Counted from the first letter of the stretch, positions 45,530-62,300 are shown. The stretch is DNA of 64,000 nucleotides from Clostridia bacterium (GCA_017514685.1 JAFWJN010000050.1:9836-73835); one strand, 5' to 3'. Numbers and translations are program-made. The notes: a model not told the origin generated them from the sequence alone.

Positions 45530-46963
45530 ATGAAATTATCACTGATTGCCCGGGAACTCGGGATCGCGTTCTCCGAGGAGGATGCTGAAATCAGTTCTAT
45601 CACATATGATTCGCGGAAAGTTGAGAGCGGGAGCCTTTTCTGCTGCCTGGTCGGACTGGTATCTGACGGGCACACTTTTGCGGGGCAGGCAGTAGACAAG
45701 GGGGCGGCGGCTCTGATTGTTGAACACAGACTTCCGTATAATATTCCGCAGCTGGTTGTCGAAGACGGCAGGAAAGCAATGGCACTTGCGGCCGCCTGCT
45801 TTTACGGGCATCCGGAAAAGGAAATGCTTATGCTGGGAGTAACCGGAACAAACGGGAAAACCAGCACTACCTATATGGTGAAATCCATTGCCGAGCAGGC
45901 GGGGAAAAAAGTCGGACTGATCGGAACCATTCAGAATATGATCGGAGACGAAGTGATCGAAACAGGCCGCACGACTCCGGAATCAGCAGATTTGTTTGCG
46001 CTTCTCAGGCAGATGGCGGATGAAAAGGTAGATCTGGTCATTATGGAAGTTTCCAGTCATGCCCTTGTTCAGGACCGCGTTTACGGGATTCAGTATCAGG
46101 TTGCGCTTTTTACCAATCTGACGCAGGATCATTTGGACTATCATAAGACATTCGACAATTATCTGAGTGCAAAAAAGCTTCTTTTTTCTCAATGCGATAT
46201 CGCGGTGATCAATCACGATGACCCGCACGCGGAAAAAATCATGGAAGGTCTGGAGTGCCCGATTTATACAACGGGAATTCATACCCCTGCGAGCTATAAT
46301 GCTTCCGAAATCGATATACAGACCTCCGGTGTGCGGTTTTTGCTGCGCACACCGAAAGGGGAAAGTCTGATCCGGCTGCACATTTCAGGACTGTTCTCCA
46401 TTTATAACGCAATGGGTGCGGCGGCCATGATGCAGCAGGCAGGTTTTTCTCTCGAACAAATCGTGTCCGGTCTGGAAGCCTTGAAGGGCGTTGCCGGAAG
46501 GCTTCAGGCGGTCAATACAAACGGGAAGCCTTTTTCGGTCTATGTCGACTATGCCCATACTCCGGACGCACTGGAGAATGTGCTGACGACCGTTAGAGCC
46601 TTTGCGAAAGCGAGGGTTCTCAGCCTGTTCGGATGCGGGGGAGACAGAGACCGAGCAAAGCGTCCCCTAATGGGTGAAATCGGAGGAAGACATTCCGATT
46701 ATGTGATCATAACAAGCGATAATCCCCGCTCTGAAGAGCCGGAGTCAATTGTCAAGGCAATCGAAGAGGGAGTGAAAAAAAGCGGGGCTCCGTATACGGT
46801 GATCGTAAATCGCAGGGAAGCGATCGCTTATGCGCTGTCAATACTGGAAGAGAATGATATCCTGGTCATTGCCGGAAAAGGGCATGAGAATTATCAGGAG
46901 ATCAACGGCGTCAAACATCATTTTGACGACAAGGAAATCGTGGAGGAGCTGCTCAGGCAGTAG
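45530..46963 (+). CDS. murE: UDP-N-acetylmuramoyl-L-alanyl-D-glutamate--2,6-diaminopimelate ligase
   Basis: GVTGTNGKTST P-loop and a DNPR motif (ITSDNPRSE), which indicates meso-DAP specificity. Confidence 0.93.
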   Translation: MKLSLIARELGIAFSEEDAEISSITYDSRKVESGSLFCCLVGLVSDGHTFAGQAVDKGAAALIVEHRLPYNIPQLVVEDGRKAMALAAACFYGHPEKEMLMLGVTGTNGKTSTTYMVKSIAEQAGKKVGLIGTIQNMIGDEVIETGRTTPESADLFALLRQMADEKVDLVIMEVSSHALVQDRVYGIQYQVALFTNLTQDHLDYHKTFDNYLSAKKLLFSQCDIAVINHDDPHAEKIMEGLECPIYTTGIHTPASYNASEIDIQTSGVRFLLRTPKGESLIRLHISGLFSIYNAMGAAAMMQQAGFSLEQIVSGLEALKGVAGRLQAVNTNGKPFSVYVDYAHTPDALENVLTTVRAFAKARVLSLFGCGGDRDRAKRPLMGEIGGRHSDYVIITSDNPRSEEPESIVKAIEEGVKKSGAPYTVIVNRREAIAYALSILEENDILVIAGKGHENYQEINGVKHHFDDKEIVEELLRQ

Positions 46964-46968
46964 AAGAT

Positions 46969-47979
46969 ATGTATTCTGTGATTAATCACTCGCTGCTGGC
47001 ACTTCTGACAGCTTTTGCAATTGCTGCGGCTCTCGGCCTTATGACCATTCCGCTTCTGCAGAAACTGACGCAGGGACAGACAGCTTCGAGCGAGGGACCG
47101 AAACCACATACAGGCAAAAAGGGAACGTCCACGATCGGCGGGATCATTATGATGTCCGCTATCATTCTGTCCACGCTTTTCTGGGCAAGAGGGAGCTATA
47201 CCTTTGTGCTGACGGCGCTTTTGATGAGCATGCTGTTCGGACTGGTGGGCTTTGTTGATGATTTTATTAAGGTAAACAGAAACCAAAGCAAAGGACTGAA
47301 CGCATGGCAGAAAATTGTGATCCATTCCATTCTCGCGCTCGGATTCGCTTTCTGGTTCTATCGGATGGAAGATGTCGGACCGTTTGTCTGGAACGGCAGC
47401 CTGAACATCGGCGGCTTATATATTCCGTTCGCTGTACTGGTAATTGTTGCAACCGTCAACTCCGTAAACCTGACGGATGGAATCGACGGGCTCGCCGGAT
47501 CAGTGACATCAGTCTATACCCTGTTCATGGGGCTTCTGCTATGCATTACGGTTGTTGCCGCTCCGGCAACCGCCGATCCGCAGGAATTGCTGGACCGCAG
47601 CGCGCTTGGAGCGTTCTCGATGGCGGTATCAGGAGCATGTATCGGGTTCCTGCTGTTTAATATGCATCCTTCCAGGGTTTCCATGGGGGACACCGGATCG
47701 CATATAATCGGAGGCGCAATTGCCGCTATTGCGCTGATGTCTGGAACGGCTCTGCTGCTTCCGTTGATGTGTGTTTGCTTTGCGGCATCCAGCGTATCTG
47801 TTATTCTGCAGATAGCGACCAATCACCTGCGGAACGGGAAACGGTTGTTCCGCATGGCGCCGATTTATCATCATTTTCAAATGAAAGGAGTGCCGGAAGC
47901 GAAGATCATTTCGATCTACAGCATCATTACGCTGGTCAGCAGCGCTGCCGCACTTCTGATATACTGGGTTTTACAATAG
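46969..47979 (+). CDS. mraY: phospho-N-acetylmuramoyl-pentapeptide transferase
   Basis: Polytopic protein with KKGTSTIGG, FVDDFIKV, NSVNLTDGIDGLA and MGDTGS motifs. Confidence 0.95.
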   Translation: MYSVINHSLLALLTAFAIAAALGLMTIPLLQKLTQGQTASSEGPKPHTGKKGTSTIGGIIMMSAIILSTLFWARGSYTFVLTALLMSMLFGLVGFVDDFIKVNRNQSKGLNAWQKIVIHSILALGFAFWFYRMEDVGPFVWNGSLNIGGLYIPFAVLVIVATVNSVNLTDGIDGLAGSVTSVYTLFMGLLLCITVVAAPATADPQELLDRSALGAFSMAVSGACIGFLLFNMHPSRVSMGDTGSHIIGGAIAAIALMSGTALLLPLMCVCFAASSVSVILQIATNHLRNGKRLFRMAPIYHHFQMKGVPEAKIISIYSIITLVSSAAALLIYWVLQ

Positions 47980-47987
47980 GAGGAACA

Positions 47988-49337
47988 ATGGAAAGACAGA
48001 AAACAGCTCTGATCGTCGGAATGGCGAAAAGCGGAATTGCCGCCGCGCGGCTTTTGTATCAGGATAATTACCGGATCATTATCAACGATATGAAACCGGA
48101 AATAAAAGGTCTTTTCGACCAACTGTCCGGAATCGCATATGAAGTCAAACTCGGCGCGAATCCAATGGATCTTCTCGACAATGTGGATCTGGTAGTCCCG
48201 AGTCCTGCTATTCCAATGACGAGAAACTTCATCGTGGAAGCTAAACGGCGCGGAATCGAGGTAATTTCTGAGATCGAGCTGGGGTACCGTTATTCCAAGG
48301 CGGATTTTGTCTGCATCACGGGAACGAACGGTAAAACAACCTGTACAGCTCTGACCGGCGAACTGTTCAAGGCGGCGGGTAGGACCACATATGTTCTCGG
48401 CAATATCGGAATTGCAATTTCAGCTCATGCATTGGAGACCCGTAAGGGGGATGTTGTTGTTGCCGAAACAGCGGCTTTGCAGCTGGAAGGAAACAGCAGA
48501 TTTCATGCTATCGCTGCAGGAGTATGCAACATTACGCCGGATCATCTTGATCATTTCGGGACGATGGAAAATTATATTGCTGCAAAAGCTAAAATTCTGG
48601 ACAATCAGACTGAAAATGATTATGCAGTCCTGAATTATGATGATCCTACTGTCCGGGATTTTGCAAAACTGACTCCGGCCCATGTTCTGTATTTTTCCAG
48701 AAAAGAAGAAGTGGAACAGGGAATGTTCCTTCGTGGAAACCGGCTCGTTTACCGGATCGGAGAAACAGAAGGCGAATTGATGAATGCGGAAGACATTCGC
48801 ATTCCGGGCGCACATAATCTGGAGAATGCTATGCTGTGCGCATTGCTGGCACTGTCGCAGGGAATTGCACCGGAGACGATTGTCAAGGTGATGAAATCAT
48901 TCCCCGGTGTTGAGCACAGAATCGAATATGTCTGCACCCGCAGCGGGGTCGATTATATTAATGATTCAAAAGGAACAAATCCGGCATCTACCATAAGGGC
49001 TATTCAGGCGATGAAAAAGCCAACGGTTCTGATTCTGGGAGGATATGACAAGAAAATCCCCTTCGATGAATTGTTTGAAGCTTTTACGCCGATTATTAAG
49101 GCGTGCGTTGTGATTGGAGATACACAGAAGACAATTCTTGAGACGGCGGAAAAATACGGTTATGCCGATTTATGCAAAACAGCAGATTCTTTTGGAGCCG
49201 CAGTGGATTTAGCGCATGATCTTGCGAAAAGCGGGGATGCGGTTCTGCTTTCACCGGCCTGTGCGAGCTGGGACATGTTTGACAATTATGAGCAAAGGGG
49301 CAGGGTGTTCAAGGAAATCGCAAGAGAATACCATTGA
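47988..49337 (+). CDS. murD: UDP-N-acetylmuramoylalanine--D-glutamate ligase
   Basis: N-terminus VGMAKSGIAAARLL, GTNGKTT P-loop, and NDSKGTN. The ATG at 47988 is preceded by AGGAGGAAC. Confidence 0.93.
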   Translation: MERQKTALIVGMAKSGIAAARLLYQDNYRIIINDMKPEIKGLFDQLSGIAYEVKLGANPMDLLDNVDLVVPSPAIPMTRNFIVEAKRRGIEVISEIELGYRYSKADFVCITGTNGKTTCTALTGELFKAAGRTTYVLGNIGIAISAHALETRKGDVVVAETAALQLEGNSRFHAIAAGVCNITPDHLDHFGTMENYIAAKAKILDNQTENDYAVLNYDDPTVRDFAKLTPAHVLYFSRKEEVEQGMFLRGNRLVYRIGETEGELMNAEDIRIPGAHNLENAMLCALLALSQGIAPETIVKVMKSFPGVEHRIEYVCTRSGVDYINDSKGTNPASTIRAIQAMKKPTVLILGGYDKKIPFDELFEAFTPIIKACVVIGDTQKTILETAEKYGYADLCKTADSFGAAVDLAHDLAKSGDAVLLSPACASWDMFDNYEQRGRVFKEIAREYH

Positions 49338-49359
49338 GCATTCATAAAGAAGGAAACAA

Positions 49360-50508
49360 ATGGAAGCACTGCAGGAAAAACAAAACAGACAGGTATTCTT
49401 CGGAAGGGCACAGGGCAGGATGGATTTTTCCATTCTGCTGGTTGTGACGATTTTGTGCGCCTTCGGACTTGTCATGATTTTTTCCGCAAGCTACTATTAT
49501 GCCCAGCATTATTCGGGCGCGAACAATGACGGTTTCTATTACCTGAAACGGCAGGCACTTTATTTGGCAATCGGGTATCCGGTTATGCTGGTTCTGTCCA
49601 TGCTGAATTACCGGGTCATTGAAAGAGCAAACTATCTGGCAATGGGGGTTTCCATTTTGCTTCTGATAGCAGTGCTCTTGTGGGGAAGAGACTTAAACGG
49701 AGGAAAACGGTGGCTGTATATCGGTCCGGTTTCTGTTCAGCCGTCTGAAGTCGCGAAGTTCGGCCTGATGATCTATATGTGCGCATTCATGTCCAGACAT
49801 CGCGGAGAAATGGCATCGGTTCAAAAAGGAATGGTCCCGATGCTGTTTGCAATCGTCTTGATTGCAGGATTGATTATGCTGCAGCCGAACATGTCGATGG
49901 CTGTTATCGTCGCGTTTATCGGTGTTGTTCTTCTCTTTTTAGGCGGATGCGACTTAAGACCGCTGATCGTTGTAGGTGTTATCGGCATTATCGGCGTGGT
50001 TGGACTGGCGTTTGCACAGCCGTACAGAATCGACCGCATGACATCCTTCCGGAATCCTGAACTGGATCCTCAGGGAACCGGCTATCAGCTTCTGCAATCG
50101 TTCTATGCGATCGGATCGGGAGGATGGTTTGGAAAAGGACTTGGAAACAGTTATCAGAAATTGCTGTATATGACATACGGCGAATCTGACTTTATCTTTG
50201 CAATTCTTTGCGAGGAGCTAGGATTTGTCGGAGGAACGATTATCATCCTGCTGTATGCATATATTGTTTTTCGCGGGATGCAGATTTCAATGAGATGCAG
50301 AAACAGGTTCGGAAGCCTTCTTAGCGCGGGTATTTCCATCGTTTTCGGCTTCCAGGTATTTGTCAACATCGCTGTTGTTACCGGACTGATGCCGACGACA
50401 GGGCAGGCGCTTCCGTTTATTTCGGCAGGAGGAACGCAGCTTCTGGTGTTCCTTGCCGCTATGGGTGTATTGCTGAACATTTCCAGGGATGTAAATCCGA
50501 ACAATTGA
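49360..50508 (+). CDS. ftsW: FtsW/SpoVE-type SEDS peptidoglycan glycosyltransferase
   Basis: Ten-TM SEDS pattern with VQPSEVAKF, ESDFIFA and LPFISAGGT. Confidence 0.9.
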   Translation: MEALQEKQNRQVFFGRAQGRMDFSILLVVTILCAFGLVMIFSASYYYAQHYSGANNDGFYYLKRQALYLAIGYPVMLVLSMLNYRVIERANYLAMGVSILLLIAVLLWGRDLNGGKRWLYIGPVSVQPSEVAKFGLMIYMCAFMSRHRGEMASVQKGMVPMLFAIVLIAGLIMLQPNMSMAVIVAFIGVVLLFLGGCDLRPLIVVGVIGIIGVVGLAFAQPYRIDRMTSFRNPELDPQGTGYQLLQSFYAIGSGGWFGKGLGNSYQKLLYMTYGESDFIFAILCEELGFVGGTIIILLYAYIVFRGMQISMRCRNRFGSLLSAGISIVFGFQVFVNIAVVTGLMPTTGQALPFISAGGTQLLVFLAAMGVLLNISRDVNPNN

Positions 50509-50546
50509 CAGACTGACAAGAGATACAGGAAAGGAAGAGCAGAATC

Positions 50547-51905
50547 TTGGCTAAGAAGCATGACGATGAGGACCGCGTAATCATCCGGTTTGACAATGAG
50601 GAGGGTGAAGAGGAAGAAGCACCCTTTAATTTGTTTGACGATGAGGATGAAACGTCACAGTCAAAGGATCCAAACCGGTATGCCGATGACTCGGAAGAGA
50701 TAACCGCTGCCGGAGATAAACCGGTGGATGAAGCAGAACAGATGAGGCTTTCTTTCGATCGATACGGCCGCAGGCTTCCTCACAAAAAGAAAAAATCGCA
50801 ATACGGAAAACGAAAAAACGCTCCGAAAGCTTCAACACGAATCATTCAGAATGATACAATTGCTCGAAGGGAATATGAAGCGGCGCAGGAACGTTCCCGC
50901 CAGAGAGCACAAAGACGCAAAGCAAAAGAGCAGAGTGAAAAAAAAAGAAAGGAGCGCGAACGCAGGGCGCGCAGAATTTCAATATTGAAGACTGCCGGGA
51001 TGGCAACAGGGGTGATTCTGATTCTGCTCGTCATGACCTGGTATACGACCAGGATTCGGACGATTAATGTGAATCATGTTCCATCCGGGTACACGGCTGA
51101 CGAGATTGTAAAGCGTTCCGGATTAAAAACAGGAGTCTGCATCGCATTCCAGAATCTGGATGACGCAAAGAAACGAATTGAAGAAGATGCTTATCTGACT
51201 GCAACGGTCAAGTATTCCTTCCCGTCAACAGTTACGATTAATATTGCACAGAGAACCGCTGCTGCGTGTGTTCGCTGGGGACCTCAGAATGAGTACCTGG
51301 CAATCATAGATTCTTCCGCGGTTGTTCTGAATGCAGAATCGGATACAACGGAAGGACTTATTGTCATAGACGGACTTGCGGTTACAACCGCACAAAACGG
51401 AAGAGCACTCGGTGATTCGACCGACATGCAGGTAGCTACCCTGATTCGGCTTTTGACAAAATTGGAGGAGCTGGACCTGATGAATCGATCGCCGCAGATC
51501 TCGCGAATCGATATGAACGAGATGATGAGCATTTCCATGAAAACAAGCGGAAGCAATTATAGCATAGAGGTCGGGGATTCTTCCAATCTGGACACAAAAC
51601 TGTTGCTTTTGCAAAAACATTGGTCGGAAATAATGAATACTGCAGCGCAGTATATAACCAAAGGATATAGTACGGCGACCATTTATCTTTATACAAAGGG
51701 CGGAGTATCTGTATCTCCGTATGAGCCCGGTTATAACTATGCAATGGAACAGATCGGGAATTATACGCTTCCAACAAACGGACCCGATACGACACCGAAC
51801 CCAATCGGTACAACAGAACCGACGGACCCTGACGCGCCGCCACCTGAAACGCCTACACCTACTCCCACCGTTATGCCTCATCAGGGAGGGTCCTTTACAG
51901 GTTGA
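50547..51905 (+). CDS. ftsQ: FtsQ/DivIB-type cell division protein with a long charged N-terminal extension
   Basis: About 145 aa of D/E/K/R-rich sequence, then a TM segment (GMATGVILILLVMTWY). POTRA-like IRTINVNHVPSGYTADEIVKRSGLKTG. P/T-rich C-terminus. TTG start. Confidence 0.7.
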   Translation: MAKKHDDEDRVIIRFDNEEGEEEEAPFNLFDDEDETSQSKDPNRYADDSEEITAAGDKPVDEAEQMRLSFDRYGRRLPHKKKKSQYGKRKNAPKASTRIIQNDTIARREYEAAQERSRQRAQRRKAKEQSEKKRKERERRARRISILKTAGMATGVILILLVMTWYTTRIRTINVNHVPSGYTADEIVKRSGLKTGVCIAFQNLDDAKKRIEEDAYLTATVKYSFPSTVTINIAQRTAAACVRWGPQNEYLAIIDSSAVVLNAESDTTEGLIVIDGLAVTTAQNGRALGDSTDMQVATLIRLLTKLEELDLMNRSPQISRIDMNEMMSISMKTSGSNYSIEVGDSSNLDTKLLLLQKHWSEIMNTAAQYITKGYSTATIYLYTKGGVSVSPYEPGYNYAMEQIGNYTLPTNGPDTTPNPIGTTEPTDPDAPPPETPTPTPTVMPHQGGSFTG

Positions 51906-51996
51906 TTTAAAGAAGAAAAAACCGTTTGAAGAGAGCTTGAAATGTTCTGTCCTTGTCAGGTGGACAAAGGAAATAACTAAAAACTTGTATGTACAC

Positions 51997-52033
51997 AACA
52001 CCTTGTTCAGCATGAGCAGGGTGTTTCTTTTTC
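51997..52033 (+). terminator. terminator after ftsQ (end of dcw operon)
   Basis: 9-bp stem AACACCTTG / CAGGGTGTT (one G-T pair), 11-nt loop, followed by TTTCTTTTT. Confidence 0.5.
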
Positions 52034-52292
52034 GTTTGCTCGTTCAACGAGTAAACGGTATTTCGATTATAATTTCCATGTGCAAGCGATATTGAACTGT
52101 GGCGGAAAAGATACATCGGTGATACAATAAATATATGTAAGAAAGGCAAAGCAATGAAGCAAACAGAGCCCACAAAAGACTTCTAGGAACAAGTGGTAAA
52201 ATATGTTTTGAAAGCTGAAAGTTCAATCAAACAAAAAAATGCAAAAAACTCGATCCGACACATATATAATTAATCTGTTGAGGACTAGGTAG

Positions 52293-52805
52293 ATGAAAGT
52301 AAGAATATCAAAATATAATCCTGCCTTTCGAATGAATGGGATATATACTGTGCCTGATTGGACCAGCGTCAGTGACATTGGTGAAGAATTCGCCGGGGTA
52401 AAGTTAAGCAAAGATATGTATTTAAATGTCGAATCACAATATCTGGCTTGCCTAAATGAACTCATTCTATTATCAAAAACAAATTCAATGCAAATTACAG
52501 CATTTGAAAGAGGACCACGCCAAGGTCTATTATTTGCATTTCAAATGACACACCTACTTAACTGTGGATTATACTTTTTCCGTCCTGTTCAATGGAGAAA
52601 AGGACAAATGCTTTCTTTATCTGAAGTGAAATCATTTATTATGGACAGTTTAAGAGAAAAGTGTTGGGGAAGACTATGTTCAGACTCTATGGCACTGGAT
52701 GTGGGATATGATTATTATGTACACCTTGATACATCTTTGTCTCTTGAATCTGTTCAAAGAGTGGTGTCTAAGTATGGTCTTTATCTTGATCGGATTCATG
52801 AATAA
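52293..52805 (+). CDS. hypothetical protein (170 aa)
   Basis: GAGGAC RBS lies 7 nt before the ATG. Soluble, and I recognise no motif. Sequence features include KVRISKYNP...DWTSVSDIG... and C-terminal VGYDYYVHL. Confidence 0.55.
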   Translation: MKVRISKYNPAFRMNGIYTVPDWTSVSDIGEEFAGVKLSKDMYLNVESQYLACLNELILLSKTNSMQITAFERGPRQGLLFAFQMTHLLNCGLYFFRPVQWRKGQMLSLSEVKSFIMDSLREKCWGRLCSDSMALDVGYDYYVHLDTSLSLESVQRVVSKYGLYLDRIHE

Positions 52806-52981
52806 TCATTTATTGAATGATCAAAATCGATATAATACAGAAACAGATTTGCAAAAAGATGTTAAGAATGATTTGGATCATGGATGGGGTTTCAAAGAGA
52901 AGTCTATATTCAGAATTGACGTATAGAAATAGAACAATTGTTCCCGCGGGATATGCAGTTTATCTTAAATGGGTTCAGTAG

Positions 52982-53917
52982 ATGAAATGCATTATGATGA
53001 AAAAACTTGTTTTATTATTGATCTTGTTTCTCACGATATCCTTCTTCTTTGGTTGCAATAATGACTCATCGGTTTATTATATTCAATCGGAAGAGCAACT
53101 AGAACACCTCATTTCGGATGTGAAGCATAAACAAGAAATCAAAGTATTAAAAATCGATGGTATAATAGAAATTCCGAAAGAAGCTTTTAAGAACTGCAGT
53201 AAACTTCAAGAGCTTATTTTAGGAAACAGCATCCAAGTTATTGGAGAAGATGCTTTCTATGGATGCGAAAATCTGGCTGAGATAAGATGGTCTAAAAGCT
53301 TAATAGAAATAGGAAGTGGTTCTTTTTACGGAACAGGAATTCATGAGCTGACATTTCCAAGCGAATGTAAATTGACAATCCAAGAATCTGCATTTTGGAA
53401 TTGCACTGAGTTAAAGACCGTGAAACTCGGAGAAGAGGTCGCTTGCTTGAAAGATACCTTTCACGATTGTGTTGCTTTGGATAGCATAGAACTTCCCCCC
53501 ACAATTGTCCTGATTGAAGCAGAAATGTGTGCAAAGTGTAATTCTTTAAAGATATTAATTCTGCCTAAGTCTGTCCAGTTTGTGGATGCATGGCCTGCCA
53601 ATAACAGTGCCATAGAGCGTATTGTATTCGAAGGAACTCCAATTGCTGTTTCCGGCTTAGTAACAAATGCAGACGAATATCCGAATCTTAACGAGATCAT
53701 CTTTCTGGAAGGCCCGCCGCAGCAAGATGCAGAACAAGCTGAATTAGTTGATTTGGAATATGCTCCGGATTTGCCTTTTTATATGGGAGATAGAACCGTT
53801 ACTATTCGCTATTTGTCGCAATATCGAGATTTATGGTCACCGAATGGAGAGACCGAATGGAACGGCTTCCCCTTGAAAGAATGTAGTAATATTGAAGACT
53901 TATTAAGTGCTGAATAA
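52982..53917 (+). CDS. BspA-type leucine-rich-repeat lipoprotein
   Basis: Lipoprotein signal LLILFLTISFFFGC. Repeated about 23-aa units of the form I(P/G)xxAFxxCxxLxxIxLPxS (IPKEAFKNCSKLQELILGNSIQVIGEDAFYGCENLAEI...). The start codon is uncertain (ATG 52982, 52994 or 52997). Confidence 0.75.
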   Translation: MKCIMMKKLVLLLILFLTISFFFGCNNDSSVYYIQSEEQLEHLISDVKHKQEIKVLKIDGIIEIPKEAFKNCSKLQELILGNSIQVIGEDAFYGCENLAEIRWSKSLIEIGSGSFYGTGIHELTFPSECKLTIQESAFWNCTELKTVKLGEEVACLKDTFHDCVALDSIELPPTIVLIEAEMCAKCNSLKILILPKSVQFVDAWPANNSAIERIVFEGTPIAVSGLVTNADEYPNLNEIIFLEGPPQQDAEQAELVDLEYAPDLPFYMGDRTVTIRYLSQYRDLWSPNGETEWNGFPLKECSNIEDLLSAE

Positions 53918-54196
53918 ATGTTCTTGTCATAACAATGTCAACGGAACGATTCTCTTGACTACTTTCATCAATGTCGCAGATTCAATAGGTGTTAAGAGGA
54001 CAGCCCTGTTGACAAATGTGATAAAACACGCAGGGACGGTTCTTGCTGTGTAAATACAGGTGCCAACGCAAACAAAATGGTTAGGAACGAATTAAAAAAT
54101 CTGTACCTGGCGTAACCATAAAATACTAATCTTAGAGCCAGAGATTATTTTCCTTCTGGTCAATTCAATTTCAAATCGGGAGATACTACTTATTAT

Positions 54197-54394
54197 GTGA
54201 AATATGAGTATAAAGGGGACGGTATAATAGCCTATGACTATGATACGAAAACTGACTGGGGAAGTGTTGCTAAAAAAACACTCGCCATCATTTTTGTCGC
54301 AGGTACTGCTATTGAGCTATTATTATCTAGTGGGCAATCTGCCGCCGACTTTCAACAAGCAATTGATCAGTTACAAAGAGCGTTTTGTTATTGA
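54197..54394 (+). CDS. small hypothetical protein or gene remnant (65 aa, GTG start)
   Basis: The frame is open from 54122 with no ATG. It has a beta-rich YVKYEYKGDGIIAYDYDTKTDWG segment, then one hydrophobic helix. Its stop lies 13 nt before the next gene. Confidence 0.3.
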   Translation: MKYEYKGDGIIAYDYDTKTDWGSVAKKTLAIIFVAGTAIELLLSSGQSAADFQQAIDQLQRAFCY

Positions 54395-54406
54395 GCAGGG
54401 GGAAAA

Positions 54407-55117
54407 ATGCATCGATTATTAAAAGCCAAAGATGTAATTCGTATAATACAATCATTTGCTGAATCCGAACATTTTTTGAAATTTAGCGACAAATCTTTCT
54501 TTATCATTGAAAATAGTTTGATCAAAAGTTTCAGTATATTCACATCGCAAAAGGGATTCTTATATGATGTTCATTTTAGTGTCAGTCCTCTATGTGGGGA
54601 ATGCCTTCATATTGGATACGAAAACATTCCATTATCTGGAGTTTCTAAACACCCGGGGCCATATTGGATTGGTTCTTCAAATGAAAAAAAGGATTATGAT
54701 TTGACCATGTCTGAAATAATAAAGGACATGAGAACAGTAATGCTTCCTTTTTTTCAAAGGTGTTCGAATATTGAAACTTCAAAAAATGAAATCCTATTAT
54801 TATTAAAAGCCACTTATAAACTAGAATCCATATTATGGGTTCCAGAATTATATGAGCTTGCGACAGCGGCATTGGATTATGATTTGATGTATCAATGCAT
54901 GATGATTCGATATAAAACGAATCTAGAACAAAAAGATAAAATGTATAATGGAAAAAAAGTTGAGCGTATTAAAGAAATCATTCGCATACAAGAACAAGAA
55001 CTTTACCACATAAAAATCAAAGACGATCAGTATTTTTTAGTACAAGCAAACGAGAACAAACGTAATAATATAGATATTTTAGACTCTTCAACAAAAGTAT
55101 GGAAAACTGAATATTAA
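54407..55117 (+). CDS. hypothetical protein (236 aa), resembles DUF4304-type putative immunity proteins
   Basis: GGGGGAAAA RBS. The N-terminal pattern (FLKFSDKSFFIIENSLIKSFSIFTSQKGFLYDVHFSVSPL) resembles DUF4304-like families. This is recognition from memory only. Confidence 0.5.
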   Translation: MHRLLKAKDVIRIIQSFAESEHFLKFSDKSFFIIENSLIKSFSIFTSQKGFLYDVHFSVSPLCGECLHIGYENIPLSGVSKHPGPYWIGSSNEKKDYDLTMSEIIKDMRTVMLPFFQRCSNIETSKNEILLLLKATYKLESILWVPELYELATAALDYDLMYQCMMIRYKTNLEQKDKMYNGKKVERIKEIIRIQEQELYHIKIKDDQYFLVQANENKRNNIDILDSSTKVWKTEY

Positions 55118-55413
55118 AAAGAGTACAAGATGTGGGCTGCGGTGAAAAAACACACCGCAGTCTACTTGGTCACTATTCTCAGCAAATGCAAGTTCAGCTA
55201 GAGCCGCATAAATTACTGTATATACATCAATCGATATGCAACCGACGAGAAACGAGTAACAGAGAGAAATATGAAAATGGATTCAATGAAAAAGTGCTAA
55301 TGAGCGAACGAACTGATCCGGGAAAACAAAAGGGAAAACGAAGAGCTCCGAAGTTCCGCTGTTCAAATTTCTAATGCCGTTTGCACTTACTCTACTGACA
55401 GAAAGGATAGAAA

Positions 55414-55944
55414 ATGAAAAAATATGTATTTTTCGGATTAGTTATTTTCGTGGTTATAATCGCTGTTGCGTTTGGATTCTTTATCATCCATAGGTTTTAT
55501 CTTCCTTCCTCTTTGTATATGCGGTCACTTTCCCTTCCAAATCTAAACTCGAAGCTTGAAGATGTAAAGTCACAGTATAGCATCAATGACAATGATACAA
55601 TAAAAACTGTTTCTCAATATGGCATTCCACAAGTTGTCATTCGGCTTGACGACAGAACATTAACTTTTATTCCGGATAACGTCCAATTTGTAACAGATAT
55701 AAAAGACTACTCAAATAACTTTATCTTAAATCAAGTGCAAGTAACAGGAGGCGATTATAAGATAAATAACATCGGGATAGGAAGTTCGCTAAAGGAAGTA
55801 GAAGAAGCTTTTCGATCTTTTCATAAATGCACTGAAAAGCCAGGCATTGGTGCAGGGTATTATGATGAAGATTATGTTTTTATTAGGTTTCTCTATGATC
55901 AAAATGATCAAGTTGTTTTGATTACAATTGCTAATGAAGTGTAG
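55414..55944 (+). CDS. hypothetical membrane-anchored protein (176 aa)
   Basis: N-terminal TM segment YVFFGLVIFVVIIAVAFGFFII and a small C-terminal beta domain (IGIGSSLKEVEEAF...VFIRFLYDQNDQVVLITI). RBS AAAGGA. Confidence 0.55.
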   Translation: MKKYVFFGLVIFVVIIAVAFGFFIIHRFYLPSSLYMRSLSLPNLNSKLEDVKSQYSINDNDTIKTVSQYGIPQVVIRLDDRTLTFIPDNVQFVTDIKDYSNNFILNQVQVTGGDYKINNIGIGSSLKEVEEAFRSFHKCTEKPGIGAGYYDEDYVFIRFLYDQNDQVVLITIANEV

Positions 55945-56160
55945 TAACTAAGTGTCAGGGGAAGTGTCAGGAAACACAAGGGGACGGTTAGCGTGAAAAC
56001 GAATTCTGGACTGGGGTGAAAAAATGACAGAGGGTATATAATAGCGTATGGGTAGGATAAGGAAGAAATAATACAAGTAATGATATACATAAAGCGCTTA
56101 ACTCCTACGTCTACATAACCAACGTCATAAACTAATCGTTCTTCAGTTGAAACCGCTATG

Positions 56161-56200
56161 CACAGGCGCTCGATTAACTCGTGCGCCTGTGTGTTTTTTC
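56161..56200 (+). terminator. rho-independent terminator at the right edge of the island
   Basis: CACAGGCGC-(13 nt)-GCGCCTGTG followed by TGTTTTTTC. Confidence 0.7.
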
Positions 56201-56329
56201 TTTATAAAACATTGAAAAACCATAAGTTGATACTGGTGATTATCTAATCCGAACGAATCAAAAAAGCAAAAGCTATAGGAATAATTCCGTTTACCTTTGC
56301 GCTTTTTTAATCAATTATGAATGAGGTTC

Positions 56330-57049
56330 TTATAGAAGCATACCTGTTTCCGTATCCCATATTGGCTTTGGACAGAAGTCAAGGGCGTCTGCGGCAGCAA
56401 AGTGATAATAGGTTTCATCATACAAACCGGTAAAAGCAGACGCATGCGCTTTCTTGCCGTGAAGATGCCCATATACGACTGCTTTTACAGAATACGGTTT
56501 TAAAAGAGACACAAAATCACTCGGTTTTCCGGTTTCCGAAAAAGGAGGATAGTGAAACATCACAATGTGCTCGGTATCTGGTTGCAGGCGATTTAAAGAA
56601 AGCTGCAAACGGAGCTTTTCCCGCTCGAACAGTTTCCGGTCGTCCGACTCTTTGAACCCGGAACTTTCCGGAACGGTCCAGCCTCGGGTTCCTGCAATTT
56701 CAACATTATGAAACCGAAAAGTATCATTCTGCAGAGCATATATCCCTTCCGGAAGCATTCGGCGGACCTGTGTTACGCTGGACCACCAGAAATCATGATT
56801 ACCACGCAGAAGCAGCTTTTTTCCAGGGAGTTCCCCCAAAAAAGCAAGATCGGCTGCAGCTTCGGAAAGATACATTGCCCAACTGATATCTCCGGGCACC
56901 AGGACCAGATCGTCCTCGCTTACAATTTCCTTCCATGCGCTTTGCAGCCGGTTTGTATGATTAGCCCATTGTTCACCGAACACATCCATCGCCTTGTTGG
57001 GAACGGAAAAGCTCATGTGCAGATCCGCAATTGCGTAGATCCTGGGCAT
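56330..57049 (-). CDS. metallophosphoesterase (calcineurin-like phosphoesterase family)
   Basis: All five MPE motifs are present: ADLH, PGDIS, RGNHDFW, MFHYPP and VYGHLHG. Confidence 0.85.
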   Translation of the reverse strand: MPRIYAIADLHMSFSVPNKAMDVFGEQWANHTNRLQSAWKEIVSEDDLVLVPGDISWAMYLSEAAADLAFLGELPGKKLLLRGNHDFWWSSVTQVRRMLPEGIYALQNDTFRFHNVEIAGTRGWTVPESSGFKESDDRKLFEREKLRLQLSLNRLQPDTEHIVMFHYPPFSETGKPSDFVSLLKPYSVKAVVYGHLHGKKAHASAFTGLYDETYYHFAAADALDFCPKPIWDTETGMLL

Positions 57050-57064
57050 ATTGATCTCACTTTC

Positions 57065-57373
57065 TCAGTCAGTTGAATCCTCATCGTCTTCCACGGGGAA
57101 GGCTTCTTCGATCGGGTCATCAGCTTCATCAGCACGAACCTGATCCGCATGCAGTTCCAGATCAGCCTGCCGCTTCTGTTCGCGAAGACATTCTTCGCAA
57201 AGGTCTTTTCCCCGGACAGCAGGACGTTCACCGCATTCCGTACACATGATAATTTCATCTTCGTCCGGTTCATGCCGGCGTTTTTTGTCCATTTCAGCCG
57301 CACAGACACGGCAGATGGTCTCATTTCCCCTTAAATAATTCAATTCGCATTTGGGGCATTTTCGTAAAGCCAT
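57065..57373 (-). CDS. small double zinc-ribbon protein with acidic C-terminus
   Basis: Four CxxC pairs: CPKC...CRVC and CTEC...CEEC. The C-terminal 35 aa are D/E-rich. 102 aa. Lies between engB and the phosphoesterase on the same strand. Confidence 0.6.
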   Translation of the reverse strand: MALRKCPKCELNYLRGNETICRVCAAEMDKKRRHEPDEDEIIMCTECGERPAVRGKDLCEECLREQKRQADLELHADQVRADEADDPIEEAFPVEDDEDSTD

Positions 57374-57441
57374 TTAAGCACCTCATTCGATCTATCCTTA
57401 TCAAAGCATAGTATGCAAAGAGAAGCTGATTCTGTCAAGAC

Positions 57442-58062
57442 TTATTTTTCATTTTCCGGGAAAGTTTGCGCATCTTCCAGGATCTGATGGATTCTCTCCA
57501 GTAATTCCGCTTTGCCTTCTCCCGTTTCGGAAGAAAAGGGAACGGCATAGGGCGGGGCTCCGAGAAGTTTTGCGTTGGAATTAGCTGCGGCTTTCCGCTT
57601 GCTTTTTGCAATTTTATCGGACTTGGTGGCGACCAGGGTATATGGAATGTTGTAGTACACAAGATAGCGGAACATCTGCCGGTCGTTTTCTGTCGGTTCA
57701 TGCCGGATGTCAATCAGCAGGAACAGATGATCCACCCGTCCGGATGCGAGATATTTTTCAATCAGTTCGCCCCAGCTTTTCTGCTCGCTCTTTGAAGCTT
57801 TGGCGTATCCGTAACCGGGGAGATCGACAAGATAAAACTGTCCCCTGTTGATGGAAAAGTAATTGATCATCCGCGTTTTACCGGGCTGTGAAGAGGTACG
57901 GGCAAGCTTTCCGTTTCCTGAAATACAGTTGATCAGGCTGGATTTACCGACATTGCTCTTTCCGACAATGGCAATTTCCTTCGGAAACGGGACAGGATAA
58001 TTCTGTCCTAAAGAAACACTTGTGACAAATTCGGCCTGTTTAATCGTGAAAATCGTATCCAT
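57442..58062 (-). CDS. engB: ribosome biogenesis GTP-binding protein EngB/YsxC
   Basis: IKQAEFVTSV....YP....EIAIVGKSNVGKSSLIN (G1), DLPGYGYA (G3), and TKSDK (G4). ATG at 58062. The longer 433-aa ORF-track call runs antisense into mreB and is rejected. Confidence 0.9.
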   Translation of the reverse strand: MDTIFTIKQAEFVTSVSLGQNYPVPFPKEIAIVGKSNVGKSSLINCISGNGKLARTSSQPGKTRMINYFSINRGQFYLVDLPGYGYAKASKSEQKSWGELIEKYLASGRVDHLFLLIDIRHEPTENDRQMFRYLVYYNIPYTLVATKSDKIAKSKRKAAANSNAKLLGAPPYAVPFSSETGEGKAELLERIHQILEDAQTFPENEK

Positions 58063-58243
58063 ATTTTCAGTATAAGGGCAAAATTCACATTTCGCAATAT
58101 GATTGTTCATAAATTCTTCATTCGGCAAATGTTGGAGCATGGTACAATTATGGTACATATCATAAGAGGGCAGTCTGCCCTGAAACACAGGAAGCAAAGA
58201 TAAAACGGCAGTTTTATCGCATGGTGGAAAGGATTTATTCAAA

Positions 58244-59281
58244 ATGGGTTTGTTTTTCTCTTCCGATATCGGGCTGGATCTCGGAACCAGTAATATCATT
58301 GCGTATATCAGGGGAAAGGGGATCGTTCTTCGCGAGCCGTGCATTGCAGCACTTGAACGGGGAACCGGCAAAATTGTCGCTATCGGACAGGAAGCCAAGG
58401 ACATGGTCGGAAGAGCCCCGGAGAATTTAATGATCATCCGCCCGATGCAGGATGGAGTTATTGCCAATTTTGATGCGACGGAAAGGATGCTGACACAGCT
58501 TTTCAACCGGATAGTCGGAAACCGAATTTTTTTCAAGCCTCGTGCGGTTGTTGCGGTTCCTTCAATGGCGACCGAGGTTGAGAAGCGTGCAGTCATTGAA
58601 ACGACAGAAGGCGCAGGGGCAAGATATACATTCCTGATAGAGGAACCGGTGGCGGCAGCAATCGGTGCGGGAATCGATATCACGGAACCGAAGGGAAATA
58701 TCGTACTGGACATCGGCGCGGGAACCTGTGATATGGTCGTCACTTCAATGGGAAAAGCGGTGATTCATGATTCTCTCAGGATCGGTGGAGATAAGTTCGA
58801 TCAGGCAATCGTCCGTTATTTCAAGCGCCAGCACGGCGTTGTGATAGGATTGAATGCGGCGGAGGATCTGAAGATCCGGTACGCATCGGCTTATCCGAGA
58901 GCTGACGAGATCAAGATGGATGTGCGGGGAAGATCTTTGGGAAGAGGACTTCCGGTCGCTCTGGAACTCGGCTCTAACGAACTGACCTTTGCGCTTGCGG
59001 AGCCGCTGCATAATATCGCCGAAGCACTGAAAGACACATTCGAGCAGACCCCGCCGGAACTCGCCGGAGATATTGCGACGAGAGGAATCTGCCTGACCGG
59101 CGGAGGAGCACAGCTATATGGGCTTGACCAGTATATCGCGGAACAGACGGGAGTTCCTTGCTATGTGGCGGAGGATCCGGTTGCATGCGTTGCAATCGGA
59201 TGCGGAAAAGTCCTTGAAGATCCGCGCAAATATGACGGGGTTTTGTATGATTATCGCAGAGGCGACTACTATGAGGAATAA
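58244..59281 (+). CDS. mreB: rod shape-determining protein MreB/Mbl
   Basis: Starts DIGLDLGTSNIIAYIRGKGIVLREPCIAA and contains IRPMQDGVIANFD and VPSMATEVEKRAV. Actin-fold motifs are present. Confidence 0.95.
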   Translation: MGLFFSSDIGLDLGTSNIIAYIRGKGIVLREPCIAALERGTGKIVAIGQEAKDMVGRAPENLMIIRPMQDGVIANFDATERMLTQLFNRIVGNRIFFKPRAVVAVPSMATEVEKRAVIETTEGAGARYTFLIEEPVAAAIGAGIDITEPKGNIVLDIGAGTCDMVVTSMGKAVIHDSLRIGGDKFDQAIVRYFKRQHGVVIGLNAAEDLKIRYASAYPRADEIKMDVRGRSLGRGLPVALELGSNELTFALAEPLHNIAEALKDTFEQTPPELAGDIATRGICLTGGGAQLYGLDQYIAEQTGVPCYVAEDPVACVAIGCGKVLEDPRKYDGVLYDYRRGDYYEE

Positions 59282-59297
59282 CGGGAGTGACGGAAGC

Positions 59298-60260
59298 ATG
59301 ACGGAGACAAAAGGAAAAAAAGCATTGTCGCTCTGTATTCTGCGGGTGCTGGAACAGCATGCATCGGAGCAGAGACCGATTTCCACCAAGCAGATTATTG
59401 AGTTTTTGAAAGATGATTACGGGATGATAGCGGAAAGGAAAGCTGTCGGACGGAATCTGATTCTGCTTTCGGAAATGGGATTCGGGCTTTCAACCTATCA
59501 TGATAATGGAAAAGGTTATTATCTGACATCGGCTGCCGATCCAACAGCGTTCGACCCTGTCATTTATGACGCGCTCTTAAGAGCTCCGGTCAGTGAAGAA
59601 ACGGATCGGAGAATTCGCGCCATGCAGCCGAAAATTCCGATTTACTCTGTAAAGGAAACACCGCAGCTGCTCAGGATGGAGGTGTTTGATACGATGGAAC
59701 GTCTCCGCACAGCAATCGAAGAGCAGAAACAGGTCACTTTCTTATATCATACTGCTCAGTCAGATGATGGAATGACCGCGTCTCCGGATGCAACCTATAC
59801 GATCTCTCCTTATGCTTTGTTTATGGCAAATGATCGATATTATGTATTGGCTGCCGTGTCGGGTTATGGAAGGCTGCTTCATTTCCGTTGTGATTATATC
59901 CGTGATGCAGTGCTTTCAGAACTGCCTGCAAGGGCAAGCTCTGAGCTTGCAGAATGCCGCGGGGGTCTGGATGTTGTCGGATATGTCAATCGCGCTGTAT
60001 TTCATCAGGATACAGCGGAACAATATTCACTGCTTTGCGCGGGCCGTCTCGTTGATGAAATTTCAGATTGTTTCGGGCGATCCGCGAAACTGATTCCGCA
60101 GGGGGATAATGTTCTGGCGGAAGTAACGGCACCGTGGACAGCCGTACGAAGATTTCTGCTGAACAATCTGTCACAGGTTACACTTTTAGAGCCGGAGATC
60201 CGGCAAAGACAAATCCGGGATGAACTGAACAGGGCACTGTCCCTTTATTCGATCCGGTAG
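59298..60260 (+). CDS. WYL-domain transcriptional regulator (wHTH + WYL + C-terminal extension)
   Basis: N-terminal wHTH (LCILRVLEQHASEQRPISTKQIIEFLKDDYGM). WYL-like core (VTFLYH...ISPYALFMANDRYYVLAAVSGYGRLLHFRCDYIRDA). The ATG at 59298 lies 17 nt after the mreB stop. Confidence 0.7.
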   Translation: MTETKGKKALSLCILRVLEQHASEQRPISTKQIIEFLKDDYGMIAERKAVGRNLILLSEMGFGLSTYHDNGKGYYLTSAADPTAFDPVIYDALLRAPVSEETDRRIRAMQPKIPIYSVKETPQLLRMEVFDTMERLRTAIEEQKQVTFLYHTAQSDDGMTASPDATYTISPYALFMANDRYYVLAAVSGYGRLLHFRCDYIRDAVLSELPARASSELAECRGGLDVVGYVNRAVFHQDTAEQYSLLCAGRLVDEISDCFGRSAKLIPQGDNVLAEVTAPWTAVRRFLLNNLSQVTLLEPEIRQRQIRDELNRALSLYSIR

Positions 60261-60341
60261 CAGATGGAAATGTTTATAATGATGACGCAAATCTGTTACA
60301 TTTCCCTGTTATAATGATAATCGGATCATGAGGTGAAAAAT

Positions 60342-62300
60342 ATGAAGGAGAAGTTTCTGAACGCCATGAAAACGGTCTGGAGCAAAATCGTTTCATGGAC
60401 AAAAACCGCCTGGAACAAAACAGTTTCATGGACAAAGGAAAAGGTCGTTCCATGGCTTAAGGATAAAGTGGTACCTGCGCTGAAAAAGGCATGGACATTT
60501 CTAAAGCAGAAAGGAAAAGAACTGCTGCAGGCGATTCCTCCGACAGTCTCCAGAATTATCCGGACAGTTGAAGGATGGCTGAGCAAAGCACTTGGACATA
60601 TCTCCGGAAAGATGGGGGAAAAAGACGGCACTGAACCGAAAAAGCAGCGCGTCAGCCGCCCGCTTCTGTTTCTGGTTCTGTTTGCAATGTGCGCGGTAGT
60701 GATTGCAGGACTGATTCTGACGATTGTTTTCTCAGCCAGATTCTTCGCCTGCGTATGTCATCCCTTGAACAGAGGAAATGATCCGATTGAAATGACGGAG
60801 ACTGCGGTTCCGGGGACTCCTTCAGCAATAGCGGAGCCGACGCCTACGATCAATCCGGATGATACTTACCTCGGCGGAGAAGTATATAAAAAGGGTGACG
60901 ATGATGAAACGATTGCCGTCGTTCAGCAGAGACTGATGGATCTCGGATACATGGATTCTGATGAACCGACGGAGCATTTCGGAAATATTACATTGGATGC
61001 TTTGAAACAGTTCCAGAAGAGAAACGGTCTGGAGGAAACCGGTGAACTGGATGAAACAGTTTACGCCCTGATGTTCAGTGATTCCGCAAAGGAGTTTTTC
61101 ATGCAGATGGGCGATGAAGGAGATGCGGTTGAAGAAATCCAGGAGCGTCTGTACGAACTGGGTTATCTGGACAAAGACAGCAGAACAGGAACATTCGGCG
61201 AGAAAACGGAAGCGGCCGTGATTGCTTTCCAGACAGCGAACGCGCTTCATGCGGACGGGCTGGTAGGTGTTCAGACCAAAGAACAACTGTTCTCCGATGA
61301 AGTAATCGGTAATGTTTTCAAGAGCGGAGACAAGGATGATTCCATCATCGAATATCAGAATCGTCTGATTGAACTGGGATATTTAGGAAGCAGCTATGAT
61401 GCAACCGGAAACATGGACTCCAAGACGGTTTCCGCAATCAAATCATTCCAGGAGGCGAACGGACTTGTCAAAGACGGCGTTCTGGGACCGTCAACCATGA
61501 ATCAGCTGACTTCCAAGGATGCACTGAAATATGCGCTTCGTCTGGGAATGAGCGGAAGCAAGGTAAAAGATATGCAGAAACGCCTGAAAGAACTCGGCTA
61601 TCTGAGTTCTTCCCAGGTTTCAGGATACTTCGGAGATGAGACAGAAGAAGCAGTCAAACTATTCCAGAAGAGAAACGGCCTGTCTCAGGACGGAGCGGTT
61701 GGTTCCAAGACGCTTGAAAAGCTGAACAGTTCCGGAGCAAAACGTGCACCATCCACGGCAACAGCGAAGGCAACGAAGAAACCGACGGCAACAAGCAAAC
61801 CCGGAAGCAAGACTACACCGAAAGCAACAAGCAAGCCCAGCGGCAAAACGACCCCGAAACCAACCGCCAAGCCGACTGCCAAACCGACTGCAACGCCGAA
61901 TACATCTGCGGCAAAGGTCGAAAAGCTGATTCAAATTGCAGAAAGCAAACTGGGATGCCCATATGTACGCGGTGCGAAAGGACCGAATCGATTCGACTGT
62001 TCCGGCTTTGTGTACTGGTGTTTGAACAAGGCCGGCGTAAAACAGGGATATATGACCAGTATTACCTGGAGGACCTGCTCCAAGTATAAGAGAATCACCG
62101 GATGGGGAGAATTCAAACGCGGGGATATTATGGTGTTTAAGGGAAGCAGCATGTCGGTAGGGCATGTCGGAATCTATCTCGGAAACGGAAAGATGATCGA
62201 CGCTTCCAGCGGTGCAGGACAGGTCAGAATCACAAAAACGATTCTTTCCGGTTCCTATTGGAAGCAGCATTTCCTGATGGCATATAGAATCTGGAACTAA
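60342..62300 (+). CDS. membrane-anchored peptidoglycan hydrolase: W/K-rich cytoplasmic N-terminus, TM, four PG_binding_1 repeats, K/P/T linker, C-terminal NlpC/P60 (C40) endopeptidase
   Basis: TM segment LLFLVLFAMCAVVIAGLILTIVF. Four repeats of the type GD.D..I..(I/V)Q.RL.(D/E)LGY(L/M)...G.FG..T..A...FQ..NGL..(D/T)G. NlpC/P60 Cys in FDCSGFVYW and His in GHVGIYLG. TGAGGTG RBS before ATG 60342. Confidence 0.85.
   Translation: MKEKFLNAMKTVWSKIVSWTKTAWNKTVSWTKEKVVPWLKDKVVPALKKAWTFLKQKGKELLQAIPPTVSRIIRTVEGWLSKALGHISGKMGEKDGTEPKKQRVSRPLLFLVLFAMCAVVIAGLILTIVFSARFFACVCHPLNRGNDPIEMTETAVPGTPSAIAEPTPTINPDDTYLGGEVYKKGDDDETIAVVQQRLMDLGYMDSDEPTEHFGNITLDALKQFQKRNGLEETGELDETVYALMFSDSAKEFFMQMGDEGDAVEEIQERLYELGYLDKDSRTGTFGEKTEAAVIAFQTANALHADGLVGVQTKEQLFSDEVIGNVFKSGDKDDSIIEYQNRLIELGYLGSSYDATGNMDSKTVSAIKSFQEANGLVKDGVLGPSTMNQLTSKDALKYALRLGMSGSKVKDMQKRLKELGYLSSSQVSGYFGDETEEAVKLFQKRNGLSQDGAVGSKTLEKLNSSGAKRAPSTATAKATKKPTATSKPGSKTTPKATSKPSGKTTPKPTAKPTAKPTATPNTSAAKVEKLIQIAESKLGCPYVRGAKGPNRFDCSGFVYWCLNKAGVKQGYMTSITWRTCSKYKRITGWGEFKRGDIMVFKGSSMSVGHVGIYLGNGKMIDASSGAGQVRITKTILSGSYWKQHFLMAYRIWN

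Follow-up and report, generated by a model that had tools for sequence, protein, structure and literature searches.

An AT-rich island at positions 51950-56320 of a 64,000-nucleotide (nt) window of clostridial DNA is probably a heterogeneous polyimmunity islet that arose from decayed Rhs/PT-HINT toxin cassettes. The window (positions 9836-73835 of contig C24, JAFWJN010000050.1, renumbered here from its first letter) belongs to the 2.37-Mb, 61-contig, 82%-complete metagenome-assembled genome GCA_017514685.1 of a Clostridia bacterium, and the island follows ftsQ at the distal end of the division and cell wall (dcw) cluster. The genus consists of uncultured Clostridia whose habitats are the rumen, omasum and reticulum of cattle, goat, sheep, buffalo and reindeer. 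In what follows, C-numbers denote contigs of the source genome and L-numbers the compared loci or contigs. The cassettes of origin would be orphan toxin-tip/immunity cassettes of Rhs/YD-repeat and PT-HINT polymorphic toxin systems, from which the toxin-coding parts appear to have been deleted or frameshifted and the immunity genes kept intact; the long intergenic gaps noted in a preliminary description of this DNA would be short 3' toxin scraps and recombination scars. The products probably protect the cell from the toxins of its neighbours and, as gene context suggests, would do so by binding and neutralising toxins of neighbouring rumen bacteria.

The five plus-strand open reading frames (ORFs) of the preliminary description were all recovered at the same positions. 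Four of them, orf170, LRR311 (LRR, leucine-rich repeat), orf236 and orf176, all on the plus strand, are intact and mutually dissimilar, and sequence comparison indicates that all four belong to families with other members directly 3' of polymorphic-toxin tips. All island ORFs were scanned against Pfam, NCBIfam, PADLOC and PHROGs; orf170, orf236, orf176 and the fifth, orf65, have no match in these libraries. A comparison of orf170, orf176 and the orf236 family with PDB sequences yielded nothing significant, and no paralogues of the island genes were found in the source genome apart from a weak LRR match on contig C60.

Relatives of orf236 and LRR311 occupy the immunity position in L021, a 57.6-kb contig with an orphan-cassette array of Rhs C-terminal (Rhs-CT) toxins and small genes. 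The first unit of this array consists of a 679-amino acid (aa) RHS/YD-shell protein followed by an orf236 homologue; in further units, an Rhs-CT with an NlpC/P60 tip is followed by an LRR_5 lipoprotein, and other Rhs-CT proteins are followed by a 163-aa and a 124-aa membrane protein. The product of orf236 (54407..55117, plus strand, 236 aa) is a predicted cytoplasmic protein of the immunity type that is 56% identical to P0005, the product of the gene behind the 679-aa protein. The family is rare, with relatives in 5 clusters among 5.8 billion proteins. The toxin tip ahead of this homologue in L021 has no Pfam match, but a D...ExK motif can be discerned by eye. The preliminary description had labelled the 236-aa protein as similar to DUF4304 (PF14137); this label has to be dropped, given that no Pfam hit is obtained at E <= 0.1 and that an hhalign comparison of the orf236 family with the DUF4304 protein of L023 gives a probability of 0.1%.

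The gene for LRR311 (52982..53917, plus strand, 311 aa) encodes a BspA-type LRR lipoprotein, as already described from the sequence: the Pfam LRR_5 model is matched at 1.4e-29, and a lipobox-like sequence stands at the N-terminus. The protein shares 33% identity with the L021 LRR_5 lipoprotein, whose gene lies 10 nt behind the Rhs-NlpC/P60 orphan toxin. Immediately upstream of LRR311, and in the same frame, lies a 54-codon ORF (52817..52981, plus strand) that ends in 'GVSKRSLYSELTYRNRTIVPAGY' and appears to be the 3' remnant of an NlpC/P60-type tip: in a tblastn comparison with the L021 toxin, the residues encoded at 52886-52954 are 61% identical to its C-terminal end (E = 1e-4; 6e-5 in a second computation). 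The placement of an LRR protein beside a polymorphic toxin, which characterizes the Imm-LRR class, is accordingly seen twice, with the L021 relative behind a toxin and LRR311 behind a scrap, so that LRR311 is a candidate member of this class. Its predicted location also fits immunity, because LRR311 is a probable lipoprotein and the toxin beside its relative is a cell-wall hydrolase. In L031 (2872-3972) and L032 (1061-2161), the stop between the NlpC/P60 scrap and the LRR gene is lost, resulting in a 366-aa fusion call.

The other two genes are related to genes of PT-HINT and Rhs arrays. The product of orf170 (52293..52805, plus strand, 170 aa), a predicted cytoplasmic protein of the immunity type, is 35% identical to that of the gene immediately behind a PT-HINT+Ntox21 toxin tip in L026 and L027. 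The 176-aa protein encoded by orf176 (55414..55944, plus strand) is predicted to be membrane-anchored, in agreement with the preliminary description, and likewise of the immunity type; the AlphaFold2 (AF2) model (pLDDT 79) shows an N-terminal membrane helix and an alpha/beta ectodomain. A Foldseek search with this model retrieves weak matches only (TM score 0.36-0.49), to accessory domains of SCP proteins, the DUF4309 protein YjgB and YfeY, which are compatible with an exported binding domain but undiagnostic. A gene 88% identical to orf176 is present on 176 contigs, within long Rhs/PT-HINT arrays (L023-L030) that sit downstream of tig-clpP-clpX in another species, with 60% G+C. In the same arrays, paralogues of orf176 (26-28% identical) are located 10-19 nt behind orphan Rhs-CT toxins, that is, C-terminal Rhs fragments that carry a toxin domain of about 200 aa. 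One of the arrays with an orf176 homologue (L027:12524-18525) adjoins replication genes of a phage-like kind, for a family A DNA polymerase, a primase/helicase, MazG and DUF3310.

Taken together, these contexts suggest a division of labour in which LRR311 and orf176 would act outside the membrane, LRR311 against a peptidoglycan-cleaving NlpC/P60 tip, and orf170 and orf236 would act on cytoplasmic tips, with Ntox21 beside the orf170 relative and the tip with the D...ExK motif beside the orf236 relative. The preliminary description had considered an uncharacterized accessory function in surface interaction or in immunity and defence; gene context favours immunity, specifically to polymorphic toxins, and speaks neither for adhesion nor for phage defence. 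A surface-interaction island, in which the LRR lipoprotein would serve as an adhesin and its neighbours as envelope accessories for attachment to feed particles, the host or other microbes, would account for the LRR_5 match, for weak matches of LRR311 to the adhesin models HupY/LrrG and Gli349, for the lipobox-like N-terminus and the membrane anchor of orf176, and for the finding that metagenomic LRR_5 relatives are mostly large multi-repeat surface proteins. This explanation is nevertheless very unlikely: the adhesin-model scores are 29 bits against cut-offs of 1250-1750, LRR311 is short, orf170 and orf236 have no export signal, and the toxin scrap precedes LRR311 in frame just as the intact toxin precedes its L021 relative.

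The polyimmunity interpretation further draws on the DNA between the intact genes, where no Rhs core fragment with an intact toxin domain was detected in the window by tblastn with Rhs proteins, only scars. The toxin remains in the locus amount to 23 residues of the NlpC/P60 scrap, one frameshifted tip and a core scar of 8 residues, and there is no complete toxin gene. Behind LRR311, a decayed toxin region (53938..54196, plus strand) opens with an Rhs-core 'NGT' join and continues as frameshifted toxin-domain sequence; DNA homology to the L021 cassette starts at 54103. The identity of this region is apparent from L022, a contig of another metagenome that is 98.9% identical to window positions 53938-55293 and retains an Rhs core joined at 'NFNGT' to the remnant (48% identity to the L021 Rhs protein, E = 1e-18). 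Next follows orf65 (54197..54394, plus strand), a toxin-tip 3' end; its counterpart in L021, with 80-82% identity, occupies L021:7789-7983, between the Rhs ORF and the orf236 homologue. Because amino-acid conservation extends upstream of the orf65 GTG, first in frame and then in another frame ('TWRNHK'), orf65 is not a separate gene but what is left of a longer toxin-tip frame after truncation and frameshift, in line with its initial description as remnant-like. The gap between the end of orf65 and orf236 is 12 nt; the orphan-cassette arrangement, with the immunity gene directly 3' of the tip, is thus retained both here and where the NlpC/P60 scrap abuts LRR311. The frame of the L021 Rhs toxin that precedes the orf236 homologue ends at 7690, and the conserved tail resumes in another frame across an A-rich run; this break (L021:7600-7800) results either from a frameshift introduced by sequencing or from a tip that is split or pseudogenised.

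A possible decayed fragment had been noted at 55130-55413, and it proved to be real junction debris (55118..55413, plus strand). It contains an 18-nt copy of the tail motif discussed below (55133-55150), the start of a lipoprotein gene, reduced to its first eight codons (MKMDSMKK; 55271-55294), which L022 and L054 possess in full (211 aa), and an 'ANELIREN' join (55304-55327) resembling the Rhs core where the L021 orphan fragments begin. An 80-aa ORF at 55132-55374 was rejected as spurious. The orf176 cassette starts at this join: its homology to L023-L030 extends over 55326-55950, with 89% DNA identity. The tig-clpP-clpX flanks of these arrays are only 66-70% identical to the source genome, so the orf176 cassette was imported across species.

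The content of the locus varies between independent assemblies of the same species, in which four states are seen. The arrangement seen in the window recurs in L036 (99.9% identical) and in L054, which rules out an assembly artefact. In L054, also at the ftsQ site, a lipoprotein gene is present instead of orf176, and an 80-aa C-terminal remnant of an IS3 transposase (IS, insertion sequence) lies between ftsQ and orf170. Two further strains (L035 and L037) are window-like up to 52893 and then carry other cargo, 1.74 kb of different orphan genes, until 56348. The 3' half of the phosphoesterase gene (56348 to ~56800) is ~15% diverged from L035, the divergence falling to zero by 57000; the neighbouring DNA is ~1% diverged, and dS of ftsQ in the comparison with L035 and L037 is 0.07. 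Judging from this profile, the divergence spike reflects homologous replacement from a diverged donor that arrived together with the cargo swap.

In L031 and L032, a block corresponding to window positions 52243-55115 plus the tail motif, that is, orf170 to orf236 without the orf176 cassette, resides at another chromosomal site, between genes for EF-G-like and RCC1-repeat proteins; this site is empty in the source genome (C53:28362-28468, ~105 bp). On its left the block borders on an IS3 pseudogene (rve_2/rve_3) and on a TnpB-type element of which the 3' end is present. The segment from the LRR gene through orf65 to orf236 is 99.6% identical to the window and orf170 just 92%, and the block is therefore a mosaic. 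These comparisons suggest that cargo would change through homologous recombination within conserved flanking sequence (ftsQ/orf170 to the left, the phosphoesterase gene to the right), through cassette-level replacement at short shared sequences and, in at least one move, together with IS3-type DNA.

Given the amount of debris, it has to be considered whether the island as a whole is a dead relic, what remains of an old, disintegrating array of Rhs orphan cassettes, functionless and awaiting deletion. Such a fate would explain the frameshifted and truncated toxin parts, the long spacers and the junction scraps, and it is in keeping with a promoter scan of the island in which the signal remained at chance level and with the lack of most of the block in some conspecific strains. 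Decay, however, is unevenly distributed, in that the four immunity-type ORFs are all intact and every toxin part is broken. Moreover, where divergence permits measurement, orf170 and orf176 are under purifying selection, with dN/dS of 0.34 (against the L031 copy) and 0.21, respectively. The block or its parts persist at 95-99.9% identity in at least 7 independent assemblies (L036, L054, L031, L032, L022, L055 and L056) and at two chromosomal sites, and the foreign orf176 cassette was gained recently. A dead relic is therefore an unlikely explanation.

Several observations weigh against the interpretation of the island as a polyimmunity islet. The immunity function rests on gene position in other loci, and for LRR311 and orf236 the toxin association comes from a single array, that of L021. 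A metagenome scan with the LRR alignment, which also yielded the strain variant L054, retrieved for the most part generic LRR_5 surface proteins that have no Rhs gene in their vicinity, so an LRR_5 match by itself is not specific to immunity. The published immunity partner of Ntox21 is Imm41 (PMC3482391), and orf170 is not detectably Imm41: the assignment was tried and rejected, no Pfam family being matched at E <= 0.1. The AF2 model of orf236, built from 5 sequences, is poor (pLDDT 47) and was left out of the fold search, and the 'ANELIREN' scar extends over just 8 residues or 26 nt. Finally, the 82%-complete assembly yielded no full-length Rhs toxin; all that was found is a C-terminal piece with which contig C1 ends.

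The region around this piece (C1:1-8421) has features of its own. The Rhs C-terminal fragment (7278-8420, minus strand) runs off the contig end and is followed by a 259-aa AT-rich gene; by translation, the neighbouring ORFs are recombinase/integrase-like, relaxase-like and ParB-like. This content suggests a mobile element with an Rhs toxin, the membership of the contig in this organism being uncertain.

Composition sets the island apart from its surroundings, and the sharp drop in G+C after ftsQ and the recovery at the phosphoesterase gene, originally counted by hand, are borne out by sliding-window and tetranucleotide analysis. At the 3' end of ftsQ the G+C fraction is 0.44-0.48; from 52000 to 56250 it drops to 0.32-0.41, and it rises to 0.49-0.52 in the minus-strand phosphoesterase gene. 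The segment 51950-56320 has 35.8% G+C compared to 48.2% for the genome (z = -3.8; genome windows of 4.3 kb have a mean of 48.3% and a standard deviation of 3.3%), and equally low values are found in 3/4264 of these windows; its tetranucleotide distance to the genome mean (z = +5.3) is matched by 1/1009 windows. The island is thus foreign by composition, and it is accessory and strain-variable, but low G+C alone does not prove recent import, because Rhs tips and immunity genes are normally AT-rich. In the L021 cassettes, the Rhs core has a G+C fraction of 0.58 and the tips and the genes after them ~0.35, so the low G+C of the island is the usual makeup of such tips and immunity genes. Elsewhere in the genome, similarly low G+C is encountered only at C39:20500-32300 and C46:17500-27800. 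The former, judged by translations and not by a library scan, is a capsule/exopolysaccharide-like locus, with genes for a chain-length determinant, a tyrosine kinase, a PHP phosphatase, glycosyltransferases, a polymerase/flippase and a LicD-like protein.

The borders are not those of an integrase-type genomic island. ORF calls and the Pfam scan found no integrase or transposase in the island of the window, and no tRNA gene and no flanking direct repeats were found there; Rfam scans gave no family either in the island or in L031 and L032. The earlier characterization of the island as free of mobility genes holds for this strain and fails for L054, with its IS3 remnant, and for L031 and L032, with their IS3 and TnpB debris. 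On the left, the spacer after ftsQ (51906..52292, plus strand) contains terminator-like hairpins at 51997-52025 and 52032-52058 and a diverged trace of the 'head' that in L054 holds the IS3 transposase remnant; the block shared with L031 and L032 starts within it, at 52243. On the right, an AT-rich spacer (56054..56329, no strand assigned) stands ahead of the stop codon of the metallophosphoesterase gene (56330..57049, minus strand), which forms the right flank.

The preliminary description placed the island where many dcw clusters continue with murG, ftsA and ftsZ. There is no sign of displacement: the cluster ends at ftsQ in 8/8 genus relatives examined (L013-L020), followed by differing, unrelated genes, and the island therefore did not displace murG-ftsA-ftsZ. 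The genes after ftsQ in L014-L020 include those for a PIG-L deacetylase, flotillin and holA. The pairing of ftsQ with the phosphoesterase gene on either side of one slot is limited to the source genome and the closest sister species, G003 (contig C286, here L013), in which the slot is filled by a high-GC PIG-L/BshB-like deacetylase gene and a 37%-GC gene on the minus strand (L013:3040-4539, 499 aa) that matches the PADLOC model PDC-S26 at 1.5e-131 and is a single-gene defence candidate. By these comparisons, the end of the dcw cluster is a site of rearrangement and of cargo. The source genome is far richer in AT than the rest of its genus: over window positions 44000-64000, the G+C of the dcw region is 0.45-0.52 in the source genome versus mostly 0.55-0.67 in the eight relatives, and protein identities to these relatives range from 94% for MreB down to 45-67% for FtsQ.

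The PDC-S26 match in the same slot is the point in favour of an anti-phage defence island at a defence hotspot. For the island itself, this alternative is extremely unlikely, considering that none of its proteins has a meaningful PADLOC or PHROG match and that all four genes have toxin-tip neighbours elsewhere. There is, rather, a hint that the slot between ftsQ and the phosphoesterase gene is one hotspot that gathers both kinds of defence cargo. If the island is a polyimmunity islet, the one compositionally foreign stretch of the window reduces to an ordinary locus of interbacterial conflict, neither a new system nor a disrupted cell-division cluster.

Among known systems, the closest are the heterogeneous polyimmunity loci, which vary between strains and for which LRR repeats are a listed immunity class (Zhang, de Souza, Anantharaman, Iyer, Aravind 2012, Biol Direct 7:18, PMC3482391). 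Like these, the islet is a tandem, co-oriented row, here of four structurally unrelated immunity-type genes with no complete toxin; its content differs between strains of one species (L035/L037, L054 and L031/L032), and it includes an LRR-repeat member. Unlike them, it is small, four genes being the lower limit of 'extended' loci, three of its four families are unnamed and outside Pfam, it has no adjoining XerC/D-type recombinase, and the toxin scraps still reveal its apparent origin in Rhs orphan cassettes. The second comparison is with orphan rhs-CT/rhsI modules, which are found behind rhs genes (Poole et al. 2011, PMC3150448; Koskiniemi et al. 2014, PMC3967940). In these modules, as in the cassettes in question, an immunity gene follows a fragment of Rhs core with a variable AT-rich tip, and units are joined and exchanged by recombination within the core; the window's own cassettes are seen in this form in L021, L022 and L023-L030. 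The window, by contrast, has lost both the core fragments of Rhs and the toxin domains, there is no full-length rhs gene ahead, and the genes stand behind ftsQ instead of a toxin gene.

A third parallel is with the acquired interbacterial defence (AID) clusters of gut Bacteroidales, reportedly described by Ross et al. in 2019. Two further sources also treat AID or orphan immunity gene clusters in gut Bacteroidales (PMC12247911, PMC10470768). By analogy, the islet would likewise be a stockpile of orphan immunity genes that members of a gut community exchange horizontally, with presumed protection from toxins of non-kin. AID clusters differ in that they neutralize effectors of the Gram-negative type VI secretion system and that some are tied to a recombinase; the islet, unlike them, resides in a Clostridia bacterium, and its source toxins are Rhs/PT-HINT proteins. 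Arrays of orphan immunity genes are already well described. What is new here is confined to the three unnamed candidate families with their candidate toxins, the easily read decay series and the head/tail frame considered below. The families orf170, orf236 and orf176 thereby receive context-based function calls with candidate toxin tips, and the locus provides a clear example, in uncultured rumen Clostridia, of a toxin/immunity array that would be decaying to an immunity-only islet, with cargo swaps between strains and species.

Past the orf176 cassette lies a tail motif of ~45 nt, TGGACTGGGGTGAAAAAATGACAGAGGGTATATAATAGCGTATGGG (56007..56053, plus strand), which marks where the block ends on the right, in L031/L032 as well as in L054. 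Five more copies are present in the source genome (C2:61012-61060, C7:3473-3500, C10:26491-26525, C16:521-566 and C55:1495-1521); all have a sharp 5' edge at TGGA, and their 3' extent varies. The motif is nearly confined to this species, being almost absent from 27 other species of the genus, with one match in G002 that adjoins a YkuD-like lipoprotein gene and has no transposase beside it. It may be an IS end, the scar of a miniature inverted-repeat transposable element (MITE) or a promoter-like element. No full-length IS3 was found in the source assembly.

Adjacent to the two copies of tuf there are two further AT-rich islets (C16:521-2006 and C55:1495-3584) with the same IS3-remnant head and the same motif tail, whose cargo consists of small membrane-protein and lipoprotein orphans (153 and 161 aa in C16; 111, 119 and 283 aa in C55). 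The head-cargo-tail layout thus occurs four times, namely in L054 at the ftsQ site, in L031/L032 at the C53 site and beside both tuf copies (C16 and C55). We tentatively suggest, with considerable doubt, that the islet is one copy of an undescribed small cargo frame composed of a conserved head, variable AT-rich cargo and a sharp-edged tail. The head may consist of a terminator-like piece and the last ~60-80 codons of an IS3 transposase, the tail of ~45 nt, TGGACTGGGG...TATATAATAGCGTATGGG, and the cargo of envelope- or immunity-type orphan genes. Alternatively, head and tail are chance IS wreckage. Should they be functional ends or recombination handles, they would amount to a dedicated vehicle that reshuffles immunity cargo among sites in a rumen species.

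In the source genome, a repeat of ~230 bp recurs with 95-99% identity at the ends of contigs C2, C5, C7, C9, C21, C42, C44, C45, C53 and C60. This repeat encodes the C-terminal zinc-finger end of a TnpB-type (Cas12f1-like TNB) protein together with downstream sequence, and a multicopy element of the IS200/IS605 type probably breaks the assembly at these contig ends.

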